From Eledone cirrhosa (taxonomy: Eukaryota), in NCBI GenBank assembly GCA_964016885.1, contig OZ024744.1, positions 20,150,001 through 20,214,000 of the forward strand: a DNA stretch of 64,000 bases, written 5' to 3'. This document shows positions 19,222 to 60,712 of the stretch, piece by piece. The translations under genes and the position numbers were made by a program. The notes under the pieces were generated by a model that did no database searches, was not told the origin of the DNA, and saw nothing but the letters and a program-made list of their open reading frames with translations. Numbering within the stretch: the first letter of the stretch is position 1; each line of letters starts with the position of its first letter.

Positions 19222-19640
19222 TAAGTATGTATACTTACATACATATATATGTATACAGACGTACAGTAGTATGTATATACATACATACACGCACACATAT
19301 ATATATATATGTACGTATGGATTTACCGAACATTGATTATAATGTTCGGTTTTTTTGTAAACAAACAACCCGAATTATTAGCCGCACAGTGTTCGGCAAC
19401 CATCTTTGCCATGTTGTTCAACACTGACAAAGGAGCGATGAACTAGTTTCTAGCTTATTAGCTGTCATCAGCAACGTATACCTTCCTGTCAGTCAATTGA
19501 ACGTATATACTTTCCTTATGCATATTAACGGCTGAACAGCCTAATTTGCATATAGAGTGAGTTAGTCGGCCGGGCGTACCGAAAACGATAAATGGAAAAA
19601 TAAAAAAAATGAAATTTCATTTCTAATTTTTAGTACTATG
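19222..19640 (-). mobile_element. Non-coding hammerhead element, ACTAGT family (sister of 31148-31810)
   Basis: Reverse complement of the 31.2-31.7 kb unit. The HHR at 19435-19477 reads CTGATGA-cagctaataagcta-GAAA-ctag-tt on the minus strand, with a weakened stem I. Confidence 0.75.
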
Positions 19641-19732
19641 AGTGAGAACTGAAATATACATTAACGGTTCAACTGAAAACTTAAACCGTTAATGTATATT
19701 TTCTTGGTTATGTCAACATTTATAAAACACAC

Positions 19733-19937
19733 TTCGTATTTTATTTGATGGTAGCGTACCAAAATGTTGGTACCCTCCAAATATATACAATAGAATAAAT
19801 ATGGTTTCATAAATATAATTTCCATTTATTTAATATCATTGAATATTATACTCCGGAAATCTGTCGAGTGCTCTGAATCAGTTATACACATTCATATTTG
19901 TTGTATTACCAACACATTGATTATCCCTTCTGCTTTT
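19733..19937 (+). mobile_element. Decayed solo pseudo-LTR related to 60440-60712
   Basis: Aligns by eye with 60515-60700. The HHR core has decayed to TTGATGG...CAAA, but the ACTC...GAGTGCT hairpin is retained. Confidence 0.6.
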
Positions 19938-19989
19938 ATATATATATATATATATATATATATATATATATATATATATATATATATAT

Positions 19990-20660
19990 ATATGAAAGAC
20001 GTAAAATAAGACAATTTAAAAAATTAAAAATCAACCAACTTACTAAAATATAACTTATATATTTGTAAGCATGAGTGTACATCTGTACACATATGTTGGT
20101 AGATGTACTAATTCTCTATATTTATCTTCAAATTGTTTGTTGAGCAAAACTGGCCAAAATTTACTGCGGTTTCATGGTAGTAGTAGGCTCTTGTCATAAT
20201 ACCCCCCCCCCCGCTCCTAACTGATTAATCTCGGTGTCACGTGATTGATTCTTTAGAATCTGCCACTGACCAGAGGCAGTGACATTTTTTCAGTGCTCCG
20301 GAATTTAGTCCACGCTAGCTTCTTTCCATCTACTGAATTATTATTTTTATATGGGTTCCTAGTGTCCGCGCATTGCCTGGGAACTTAGCTGAGAATAGAC
20401 TTCCCGATGACGTAATGAATTCTCTATAGTTATATATATTATGTAACTATATGTATCCCATTACAGAAACTAATTAGTTGGAGTGAAAACTTTAGTAAGT
20501 AACTTGATTTTTAATTTTTTAAATTTTCTTATTTTACGTCTTTCATATAATTGTTCTGCATTCACCTGCATTGAACCACATAGGTACTAAGACATAACTT
20601 ATATATTTGCTAGCATGAGTGTACATCTGTACACATATGTTGGTAGATGTACTAATTCTA
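19990..20660 (+). mobile_element. Non-coding hammerhead element, about 544-bp unit with inverted 5' piece
   Basis: Direct repeat 20051/20595. 19990-20048 is the reverse complement of about 20490-20549. The HHR at 20399-20485 has a CCGATGA core, GTAATG/CATTAC stem II and GAAA-CTAATTAG-TT. (TA)n lies on both sides. Confidence 0.75.
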
Positions 20661-20942
20661 TATATATATATATATATATATATATATATATATATATATA
20701 TATATATATATATATATATATATAATATATAAGATCATCTCTCCTCCTATCTCATCCTTCCTCATTATACTCCTCCCCCTCCACTTTTTACTCTCATCTC
20801 CTCCTCTTTTTAATCCTTTCCAACCTCCCCCCTCAAAAAACATTTTCCGCAATATCACACATCAATCTAAAACTACTTTTCATATGTTGATTTAAAACTG
20901 GACTATCCACAAGTGTGTTTTAACCTTCATATCATATCTTCC

Positions 20943-57625: not shown

Positions 57626-58804
57626 GGAGGTTTATATAGAGATGACATGCTTTTACTTATTGAAAATAATAACTCTGAACTAAATAAGAAAAGAAAACAA
57701 ATTATACAATTTTTTAATTACCTTAATCTAAAAATAGAAATTGAGAATAACCATAGAATAGTCAATTTCCTAGACGTAACATTTAATCTCAACACATGTC
57801 TTCACTATCCATTTCACAAGTTAAATGAAAACTTGAATTATGTCAATTTTAGCTCCAATCACCCCAGATCTGTCAAAAATACTATAGTAAACTCTGTTCA
57901 AAAACGTATCTCTAGAATCTCTTCCAATAAAAATATTTTTGACGAAAAAGCCCAATATTATAATGATGCTTTAGCTAGAGCAGGATATAGTGATAAAATT
58001 ATGTACATCGATAATAGACAAACTAACCAAAATAACAACAATTTTAATTACAGTAACAACTTTAACAACTATAATAGAAAGCACTACAATAATTTCAAAA
58101 ACCAGAAAAGAAATAGAACTAGAAATATAATATGGTTTGCCCCCCCCCCTTTCTCACTAAACATTAAAACCCACATCGCTAAACTATTTTTTAATGCTCT
58201 TGACAAACGCTTCCCTAGAACACATAAGTATCACTCAATTTTTAATAGACATACTATAAAATTAACGTACTCGTCCACCAAAAATTTAGCACAAAATATT
58301 AATAGAATAAATAATAGGAATCTAAAACCTAGCCAAAATACCGAAAATAGCCTAAACAATATTCAACTAAAAAACTGTAACTGTAGAGATAGATCTAAAT
58401 GTCCGCTAAATAACAATTGCTTAGTTAAAAATATAATATACAACTGTAATGTTAGAACTGATTTAAATTATTTTAATTATGTTGGTTCCACCTCGACAGA
58501 ATTTAAACTTCGCTATAATAATCACAAAAATTCTTTCACGGATCCAAATAAAAAATCCTCAACATCGCTGTCAGGGTTACTCTGGCAACTTAATCATGAT
58601 AAAGTTGGATATTCGATGGTTTGGAATATAGTTTCAAAAGGGATTCCTTTTAATTCCTCTTCTGAGACTTGTGACCTCTGCGTGGAGGAGATATTCTTTA
58701 TATTAAAATCTAAAAATTCCCTTAATTTACGAACCAATTTATTCAGCTGTTGCAGACATAGATTGAACTCAACATTTAAATATAAATATGAATTTAAAAT
58801 GTAG
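57626..58804 (+). pseudogene. C-terminal half of PLE RT + GIY-YIG (open frame, N-terminally truncated)
   Basis: GGLYRDD, VNFLDV, SNHP, CNCRDRSKCPLNNNC, NIIY..YVG, CDLC and CRH; homologous to 48278-49686. Confidence 0.9.
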
Positions 58805-60039
58805 TATAAAATGTAGTATATTTACTTAAGGTATTTGACTATTTGTGATACTTGGCGATAAATCTTTCGATTCCTTCAATTTTTTTAAAACCTTTCCGCA
58901 TGAATATATAATTAATGAGATTAAATAAACTACCATAAAATTGGCGTTGGTCCCAATCTTTTGAATACATTTTTAAGCTGGATAAACTTCTATAATAAAT
59001 ATAAGAGCATTTGTAGAATAAGTTTTGAATGATTTCTGATAGATAAGGCTTGGTGAGCAATTTTGGTCTTGTTTGCTTTTGACTCTGATTCTATGACCGA
59101 TATGCGTGGCATACTATGTTCTCTTGCGTCCCTAGATACTCTGTGGAGTGACGAAGATATTCTTGGCGTTTTTAATTTTAATATTGATATCTGTTGTCTA
59201 CTCTATGCTTGATCGATGATTATTTTAGATGTTAATGTATATCTTATATGTTTTGTGTCTATATATATGTATATATGTATGTAAATGTATGTAGGGTGGA
59301 ATCTCTTCTAACGCATTGAAGTTTTTCTTTTCTGACACATTGAAGTTTTTCATGAAATATAAGAATCAGTGCAGCGTATCACCTAGGTTCACATGTGCGT
59401 CTATATTTATCAACTTGAATTTGAGATAACCTTCTCTTTTCTCATTTTTCACGAGAATGCATATATACTTATGTTTGAAGTTTTGTCTCAGATTTTACTT
59501 ATAGACCTAAGAATTTTTAAACTGAGCATGTGGTCACTTTTTTTTACACATTATAGATATGTGTCTCATTCATGAATACTGATATTTACATTATAATGCC
59601 TAATTCATAAAAATTGATAATTCAAATGGATGAGATATAATATATTTTTAATATATTTTAAATATATCATCTTTCTTTCTTTTTTCTCCTATACACTAAT
59701 CTAACTGTATCCCTTCCCTTAACCTCTCACATATACGATGTTCATCTGTCAAAAAGCAGCCTACTATGTTTTTTTTTTCACCATCAATGTATTTCTCTCT
59801 ATCCTTGTCTCTCTATCTCGCTCCGTTGTTTTTCTTTACATACATCTCTTTTCTCTTTGCATAGATCTCTTCATCTTCTTCTTTTTTATTTACATACATC
59901 TCTTCACCTTCTTCTTCTCATCTTCGTTTTCTTTCTATATAACTATCGTAACAGTTTCACTACCAAATCAACTTTTTAAAAGGAAGTTGCTATATTACAA
60001 GGTATGTCACTAATTATTTATAAAACAGCTTATGTATTG

Positions 60040-60105
60040 TATTTTGTCTGAGGAAGGCATAACATATTTTTAATATGATATCCCAGAAATATATATAACG
60101 AAATA
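60040..60105 (+). ncRNA. Type I hammerhead in PLE pseudo-LTR
   Basis: TATTTTGT-CTGAGGA-stem II (CATATT/AATATG)-GAAA(60086)-TATATATA-ACGAAATA. Confidence 0.75.
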
Positions 60106-60248
60106 AATATGGTTTTATAAATATAGTTTCCATTTGTTTAATATCGTAAACCTACTCCAGAAACTGTCGAGTGCTTTTATATCAGTTATAAAATATTTAC
60201 TCGTTGTAACCCAACAATCTTAAATAAAACTGTTGCATATATATATAT

Positions 60249-60712
60249 ACGATATTAACAAATGGAAAGTATATTTATAAAACCATATCTATTTTATTAT
60301 ACATATTTCAAGGATACCATGTTAAATTATGGTATGCTTTCATCACACAAAATACAATATGTACCAGTTTTATAAATAAATAAATATTGACACACCCTTT
60401 CAAAATGCAACCGTTACTTTTGGAAGACATCGGGATATACCTATGTCTTCCGAAAGTAACGGTTGAATTTTGAAAAGTATGTCAATATATATTTATTTAT
60501 AAAACTGGTATATATTGTATTTTGTCTGATGAAAGCATACCATAATTTAACATGGTATCCTTGAAATATGTATAATAAAATAGATATGGTTTTATAAATA
60601 TAGTTTCCATTTGTTAATATCGTATATTTACTCCAAATGCTTGTCGAGTGCTTTATATCAGTTATAAAAATATGTGCTTGTTGTATCCCAACATTTTAAA
60701 TAGAACTTTTGC
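60249..60712 (+). mobile_element. Fold-back solo pseudo-LTR with hammerhead
   Basis: Imperfect palindrome 60249-60624 centred at about 60437. The HHR at 60518-60582 reads TATTTTGT-CTGATGA-AAGcATACCAT...ATGGTATcCTT-GAAA-TATGTATA-ATAAAATA. Confidence 0.85.

Follow-up and report, generated by a model that had tools for sequence, protein, structure and literature searches.

The 64,000-nt stretch of the Eledone cirrhosa genome analysed here (contig OZ024744.1, positions 20,150,001 to 20,214,000; the window) carries a dense run of type I hammerhead ribozyme motifs, lying in Penelope-like elements (PLEs) and in tandem arrays that lack open reading frames (ORFs). A satellite of 16 kb (2365-18401) bounds the region on the left and one of 34-bp units, from 61444 onward, on the right; (TA)n tracts break up the DNA between both. 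An earlier note on this DNA had listed 24 intact motifs, and all 24 stand where it placed them, with CUGANGA, GAAA and NUH in type I order and with paired stems, one stem I mismatch among them. A strict descriptor (CUGANGA, paired stem II of at most 150 nt, GAAA, palindromic stem III, UH, stem I of at least 4 bp) returns 21 motifs in the window, and allowing one defect adds 39783..39848 and 60518..60582, each with a G-U pair in the palindromic stem III. The motif at 19433..19479(-) (core 19471) has an intact core and a U-U mismatch at stem I pair 3, and was confirmed by eye only. Type I hammerhead cores and stems are thus confirmed at all 24 sites; self-cleavage is predicted.

Controls bear on these matches in two ways. 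The shuffled control proposed in the earlier note was run as 100 block-wise dinucleotide shuffles over 18.4-61.4 kb, in which the strict descriptor matched 0.02 times on average and once at most; a relaxed descriptor averaged 0.17 matches in 12 shuffles, and four decoy cores gave none under the strict one. The Rfam search proposed alongside it nearly fails, a single match to Hammerhead_HH9 (36851-36922) reaching 38.2 bits against a gathering score of 52, so that Rfam detects one of the 24 motifs, below threshold, because short stem III and long stem II lie outside its models. Predicted folding is strong for motifs of the 310- and 466-nt families (z -5.2 and -5.6) and modest for 31400..31442 (z -2.1), while five of the eight folded motifs are no more stable than shuffles. 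Weak scores and poor stability are expected of short or long-armed AT-rich variants.

The claim of two dozen motifs from many families holds for the number; eight of the 24, however, are copies in one array, and our tally comes to about 14 insertions in 10 families. Three of the 11 sites described as decayed (20404, 55131 and 57052) pass the relaxed descriptor, the other eight being recognisable by eye only, and those at 37910 and 36125 have a U3-A8 core (UUGANAA) with damage elsewhere. Two CUGANGA sites had gone unlisted: 40838(-), within 40760-40845, has an 8-nt palindromic stem III and a stem I of only 3 bp, and 24229(-), within 24185-24235, has a damaged stem III and stands at the end of a PLE remnant (24485-25354). 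At 28520-28600(+), CUGAUGA follows a 6-bp partner strand with a GAAG word upstream and no GAAA downstream, possibly a decayed permuted hammerhead. A crude descriptor, not calibrated on a known positive, found no credible type-SGC (scrambled or permuted) hammerhead in the window or in a 590-kb genome sample of 59 evenly placed 10-kb stretches.

The earlier note further held that much of the seemingly unique DNA here is a community of ribozyme retroelements driven by PLE reverse transcriptases (RTs). This is supported by motifs that flank PLE genes, by the PLE insertion signature of ORF-less arrays, and by homologues of 80% of the non-microsatellite DNA of 18.4-61.4 kb in 1.1 Mb of other loci, about half of which had been picked for their hammerheads. 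Two hammerhead families flank PLE coding sequence in place (46486-53580 and 57143-60236) and a third, that of 20943, does so elsewhere, with intact ORFs. Many motifs are 5'-truncated ends of autonomous Hydra-type PLEs rather than separate ribozyme elements, a refinement of the earlier reading, and two family groups among the commonest counted, with 18,872 and 57,789 motifs, are PLE terminal repeats.

ORFs between head-to-head pairs encode RWx, DKT, the RT catalytic aspartates and CxCX5C, and are intact at two loci (821 aa at L087, 775 aa at L089). All three families have RWK-like, DKT and CxCX5C motifs plus a GIY-YIG-type domain at the C-terminus with CxxC and CxH, insert in (TA)n and carry a hammerhead in the terminal repeat. 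RWx, DKT, the catalytic aspartates and CxCX5C are diagnostic of the Hydra clade (PMC8557442), to which these motifs would assign the three families; its supplement lists a member, Hydra-1_Obim, in Octopus bimaculoides. The Neptune-like remnants are so classed by their CxxC linker only. The window PLE ORFs are 42-49% identical to one PLE protein (P0001), and a protein search with a PLE protein returned 25 relatives at 31-42% identity, one from Argonauta hians; Pfam gave no match for the Hydra-type ORFs of the window.

ORF-less tandem families have units of 310, about 320, 424-500 and about 591 bp and fit non-LTR (long terminal repeat) retrozymes. The 310-bp family is a dispersed, non-coding tandem of low GC content (0.34) with a hammerhead in each unit and no ORF of at least 120 aa in the array, and the predicted circular fold of its unit has z -4.3. 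Contigs of four public runs of unknown kind contain the unit, three as a single 340-nt contig; such contigs are expected of a circle and of a tandem array alike, and carry no information on RNA. No RNA data set was listed as containing the unit. A sister family of about 320 bp (L055:5127-5882, L026:2470-3050, L103:4465-4890, L106-L125) shares its priming region, being about 80% identical over unit positions 59-212, a region with 2,236 genome matches. The two differ in the hammerhead, which in the sister combines a U3-A8 core with a palindromic stem III of 8-10 nt, and the sequences suggest module exchange. The family of about 591 bp, also head-to-head (L032, L045, L047, L076, L099), has a U3-A8 core and a 57-59 nt stem II, with 6,677 motifs, and one array of 466-bp units (G000:C1:5738324-5752446) holds 31 hammerheads in one orientation and a single one in the opposite.

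At 27 of 31 loci the 310-bp family has two arms, in the order (TA)n, minus arm, plus arm, (TA)n, the other four being one-armed. With unit phase counted from the predicted cut and the TA microhomology included, each of the 27 two-armed arrays has one outer end near phase 139 and its second outer end at 159-172, an offset of about 20-33 nt that corresponds to the PLE tail; independent choice between two end sites would give this with a probability of 2^-27. Such strict pairing of one site with each end suggests a single complex acting at both DNA ends. In a strict-flank survey of all families, 56 of 59 two-armed (TA)n-flanked insertions were asymmetric by 32-165 nt (27 in the 310/320-bp families, at 32-47 nt by this method, and 29 others, at 44-165 nt), while the three symmetric ones had no detected hammerhead. 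PLEs are known for an inverted copy and for a one-ended tail of 30-40 bp (PMC8557442), and the 310-bp arrays show both, head to head. In the PLE of the anole the tail lies between two RT start sites, and the protein, a predicted dimer, extends both strands (PMC11167929).

Short TA microhomology marks the array ends. The centre phase is random. Of the 18 clean junctions, 12 overlap at the centre by at least 2 nt, where random joining would give 18.5%. In the window's own array (43372..46084) the centre overlap is 3 nt, all units are identical, and the left end is short, the right about 30 nt longer. The centre junction at L096:4343-4520 is complex, with an alternating duplication, and the minus arm of L008 changes to another haplotype at its inner end; both suggest template switching. 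Target-site duplications cannot be defined inside (TA)n. Words of interrupted (TA)n recur in the two flanks of five insertions (L009, L018, L097, L100, L102), sometimes several times, and may reflect target duplication or microsatellite growth during insertion.

Beginning 3-10 nt past the short end, many tails carry a hairpin motif, RYUC-NN...N'N'-UH-GARY, with a six-pair stem whose paired letters vary and a 2-nt bulge. Eleven of the 18 families from which it was defined have it, as do 6 of another 22 sequences, in which 1,000 shuffles averaged 0.65 matches and never exceeded 6; that second set had been inspected before the pattern was fixed, two of its six matches are related and several of its members are tail-less. 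We therefore treat the putatively conserved hairpin as a lead. The full motif occurs in all three Hydra-type families and is absent from Neptune-like ends, and the 310/320-bp families have only its outer helix, at a similar offset, a distribution that weakly favours a Hydra-type partner for the 310-bp family.

The variation within and between arrays speaks to the template. Over 27 arrays and 84,375 aligned bases there are 12 haplotypes, and each of 32 locus-wide variants is present in both arms. Within loci, 29 variants are singletons and three intermediate, two of the latter from the apparent template switch at L008. No singleton is common to different loci; T125C, a singleton at L016, is near-fixed at L014. 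Arms of up to 14.5 units occur in the 310-bp family and of up to 31 in that of 466 bp. Because the two start sites fall in the middle of the monomer with respect to the predicted cut, a cut linear monomer would yield at most about 170 nt, under one unit. No private indels were seen at the predicted cut and ligation point in the 310-bp arrays. A circle of one monomer would explain the long arms, the single haplotype of each locus and the star-like errors.

Taken together, these findings lead us to a reading in which type I folds are carried by PLEs and by protein-less (TA)n passengers, and in which the arrays probably arise when a PLE copies one circular monomer from both ends. A retrozyme array would be transcribed and its hammerheads would cut the transcript, probably as dimers since stem III is a short palindrome; the cut monomer would be ligated into a 310-nt circle. 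A PLE dimer would bind the hairpin that lies between both start sites; the two ends of a cut (TA)n tract would be primed at two fixed sites of one circular monomer of RNA, and reverse transcription by rolling circle, displacing the strand ahead, would run for several rounds. The two cDNAs would be joined by microhomology into head-to-head arms, and new insertions would land in the (TA)n ends of older ones, which we propose would produce clusters of elements. What is observed of this scheme are the cores and stems, the Hydra-type RT/GIY-YIG ORFs ending in motifs, the flanking (TA)n, the arms, the asymmetric ends and the single haplotype. The more specific proposal, that an RT dimer docks on the bulged hairpin and so primes both (TA)n ends at two fixed sites of a ribozyme-made circle, is tentative; it may well hold, and we lean slightly the other way.

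Several points weigh against copying from a circle. Cleavage, RNA and circles are predicted from genome sequence. Minimal PLE hammerheads cut poorly (PMC4209133), one of nine Xenopus retrozyme dimers cut (bioRxiv 10.64898/2026.07.22.740005), and with the anole PLE in vitro uncut RNA was the dominant substrate, the hammerhead being dispensable and needing protein (PMC11167929). Among 20 loci checked, of the 2,236 sites sharing the priming region, no partner PLE of the 310-bp family was found; all 20 belonged to the sister family. Three mixed arrays, at L008, L010 and L022, would call for switching between templates or for templates that are multimers, and seven of the 27 centre junctions are complex and two unmeasurable. 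The first 19 arrays were the top BLAST hits to the window unit and the next nine were chosen from 16 listed loci with large ones favoured, and assembly polishing could exaggerate their uniformity.

Much of this would suit a second possibility, which keeps the PLE insertion and has as template an uncut linear multimer from an existing array, or a linear monomer with precise template jumps; the hammerheads would then be largely passengers at the insertion step. The dominance of uncut RNA, the transcription of PLE loci as tandems (PMC11167929), the weak cutting of motifs with a short stem III and the three mixed arrays all lean its way, and arrays of 17-32 units are available as sources. A multimer would also account for long arms. 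What it would not account for is the fixation of new variants, since only a bottleneck of one monomer would carry one into every unit of both arms; the 32 fixed sites beside 3 intermediate ones, the 12 haplotypes among 27 loci, the lack of singletons shared across loci and the two states of T125C all stand against it. We regard it as unlikely, if a serious contender. A third account, by Li et al. 2026 (bioRxiv 10.64898/2026.07.22.740005), would have short head-to-head PLE-type insertions expand later into minisatellites by unequal crossing-over or slippage. Very long arrays may indeed grow so. Stepwise duplication, however, predicts variants common to several units yet not to all, where 29 of the 32 variants within loci are singletons. 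The two arms would need to grow separately at thousands of insertion sites, and starting mid-unit, a cut monomer would not have the length to found a tandem. Accounting for neither the singleton excess nor the growth of both arms, this account appears highly improbable. An origin of the motifs by chance in AT-rich sequence or by faulty assembly, as the lone Rfam match and the unremarkable stability of five folds might hint, is refuted almost beyond doubt by 21-26 matches against 0.02-0.17 in shuffles, by the empty decoys, by reversed-pattern controls of 0-1 against 136,812 genome matches and by the presence of the 310-bp unit in contigs of public runs.

The ribozyme fold itself seems to have been maintained. 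In the 310-bp family substitutions fall at the free core position 7 and in loop II. The 320-bp family shows compensatory change, switching between C3-G8 and U3-A8 and varying its palindromic stem III; in an anchor-based tally most cores were U3-A8, three were C3-G8 and about ten were mismatched, with two decayed arrays contributing many of the last. In the 590-kb sample U3-A8 cores matched 11 times (shuffles 0-2), against once for U3-G8 and never for C3-A8. The substitution pattern and this covariation would point to selection on the ribozyme fold.

Hammerhead density is a genome-wide property, and the cluster in the window is not special. Five exact patterns, which test the core and flanking letters and not stem II pairing, occur 16,180 (the 310-bp family), 18,872, 57,789, 37,294 and 6,677 times in the 3.0-Gb genome, 136,812 motifs in all (46 per Mb), against 0-1 for reversed patterns. 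The strict descriptor finds 40 motifs in the 590-kb sample and 0-1 in ten shuffled sets. Weighting by chromosome class gives an estimate of 226,000 motifs (bootstrap 140,000-316,000), plus about 54,000 with a U3-A8 core; as the sample over-represents the counted patterns about 1.4-fold (37 matches against 27 expected), about 200,000 is the safer figure. The window is about eight times denser than the sample mean, yet 3-4 motifs occur in 7 of the 59 stretches, and we rejected the notion of a unique hotspot. Hammerhead counts track (TA)n counts (rho 0.55, n=59 stretches), and several arrays directly adjoin the (TA)n end of another element. For comparison, the axolotl has up to 120,000 hammerheads in a 28-Gb genome, fewer than the motifs counted here, and a coral has over 6,000 (PMC7229834). 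Hammerhead elements are thus a large share of the genome, and an easily missed one, Rfam having found one of the 24 window motifs.

The features of the window are collected in Table 1. The left satellite has units of 50, 97 and 147 bp, internal inversions that form long hairpins and a 2,555-bp higher-order duplication; the right one (61444-64000) has at least 75 copies of its unit. Rfam microRNA matches in the window fell on microsatellites and satellite hairpins and were discarded, the spurious MIR2646 matches being hairpins of the left satellite. RT remnants of the long interspersed nuclear element type, devoid of hammerheads, lie at 28681-29202, 28-345 and 31800-34291 (about 34300), one of them ending in C2H2 zinc fingers.

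Table 1. Hammerhead-bearing elements and related features of the window (positions within the 64,000-nt stretch)
Feature	Position	Strand	Remarks
Two-armed 310-bp retrozyme array	43372..46084	.	between (TA)n tracts; minus arm 1.2 units, plus arm 7.6 units
Seven type I hammerheads of 310-bp array	44025..45927	+	palindromic stem III, extended stem I; predicted fold z -5.2; cores 44031 + 310n, predicted cuts after 44061 + 310n
Hammerhead, inverted arm of 310-bp array	43497..43539	-	strict descriptor
Hydra-type PLE	46486..53580	+	615-bp direct terminal repeats, 99.2%; RWR, DKT, CxCX5C in translations; frameshifted RT/GIY-YIG ORF at about 47223-49680; otherwise young, with 1.8-kb mixed TA/TG microsatellite in 3' region (50854-52630)
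Hammerhead, 116-nt stem II, 5' repeat of PLE 46486..53580	46749..46903	+	strict descriptor
Identical hammerhead, 3' repeat of PLE 46486..53580	53229..53383	+	strict descriptor
5'-truncated Hydra-type PLE	57143..60236	.	ORF 57569-58804 (+); inverted copy of its end at left; right end extends 80-89 nt further; hammerheads 57184-57249(-), 60040-60105(+)
Hammerhead of truncated Hydra-type PLE end	20943..21013	+	family with 18,872 counted motifs; intact ORFs at loci L087, L089
Hammerhead, family group counted 57,789 times	39783..39848	+	G-U in stem III
Hammerhead, same family group as 39783	60518..60582	+	G-U in stem III
466-bp-unit retrozyme	36381..37122	.	1.4 plus units; 73-bp inverted arm ending about 74 nt further on; hammerhead 36862-36906(+)
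Hammerhead of a related tandem family	31400..31442	+	units about 424-500 bp elsewhere
Hammerhead, same group as 31400..31442	19433..19479	-	U-U mismatch in stem I
Partial tandem, period 741	30070..31126	+	two hammerheads, 95-nt stem II: 30077-30198, 30818-30939
Two-armed insertion, 122-nt tail	54472..55379	.	intact hammerhead 54518-54600(-), damaged one 55131(+)
Older two-armed insertion, family of 54472..55379	19994..20658	.	114-nt tail; damaged core at 20404
Hammerhead, 26-nt stem II, short-end copy	54006..54063	-	strict descriptor
Related hammerhead, weak base of stem II	41240..41313	-	descriptor match
Minimal hammerhead of PLE end	41655..41690	-	relative follows Neptune-like coding remnants, about 25305-28084(-)
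Broken Neptune-like PLE (RT, GIY-YIG)	21513..23889	+	ends in decayed hammerhead near 23850; inverted relative at 37908-38813 with U3-A8 core

The literature names the mobility of animal retrozymes, and the origin of the inverted repeats and one-sided tail of PLE insertions, as questions still to be answered (PMC7229834, PMC8557442). Both become testable in vitro with a young family that has inserted thousands of times, its fixed start sites, intact ORFs of the partner type in the same genome and a candidate protein-binding hairpin, and our finding is useful mainly for this anatomy. If true, the proposed mechanism would be genomic evidence for two-ended rolling-circle retrotransposition, and a single mechanism would underlie retrozyme arrays as well as inverted repeats and the tails of PLEs.

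PLE ends with hammerheads, tandem retrozymes, tails and inverted copies have each been published before. Our literature searches, whose coverage is incomplete, found no paper on cephalopod retrozymes, on two-armed single-haplotype arrays with PLE tails, on long hairpin-bearing tails or on such hammerhead abundance. Minimal PLE hammerheads, including those of Schistosoma mansoni with about 1,300 hits of a covariant U3-A8 core (PMC4209133), share the short palindromic stem III and the opposite-strand pairs, 100-700 bp apart there. Here the U3-A8 core occurs in about five families, tandem retrozymes included (one of them with 6,677 counted motifs), and alternates with C3-G8 within a single family.

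Hydra-clade PLEs (PMC8557442) resemble the elements of the window in RWx, DKT and CxCX5C, in the C-terminal endonuclease, the (TA)n targets and the hammerhead near the 3' end, and in an inverted 5'-truncated copy with a tail at one end. The tails here, however, are family-specific and up to 165 nt long, against the 30-40 bp reported, many with a bulged hairpin; stem II reaches 95-116 nt, and copy numbers run to tens of thousands. Poseidon of Anolis carolinensis (PMC11167929) likewise has two internal RT start sites bounding the tail and an AT-rich target, and its protein, a predicted dimer, cuts and extends both strands. Its start sites are not homologous to the target, whereas the ends here have short TA microhomology; the pairing of one site with each DNA end and the multimeric arms are features of the present arrays that the accessible portions of that study do not examine.

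A further likeness is to metazoan non-LTR retrozymes (PMC7229834; bioRxiv 10.64898/2026.07.22.740005), which are non-coding low-GC tandems with units of about 300-600 bp and one type I hammerhead each; they co-occur with PLEs, and circle-templated reverse transcription was proposed for them. The words 'inverted' and 'rolling' do not occur in the text of PMC7229834 as available, and Li et al. 2026, in the parts accessible, mention rolling-circle transposition and ascribe arrays to local expansion. Circles were shown in those systems, while our arrays are known from the genome; in turn, the arrays of Eledone cirrhosa differ in being two-armed and (TA)n-targeted, with the asymmetric tail of a PLE and one haplotype per insertion.

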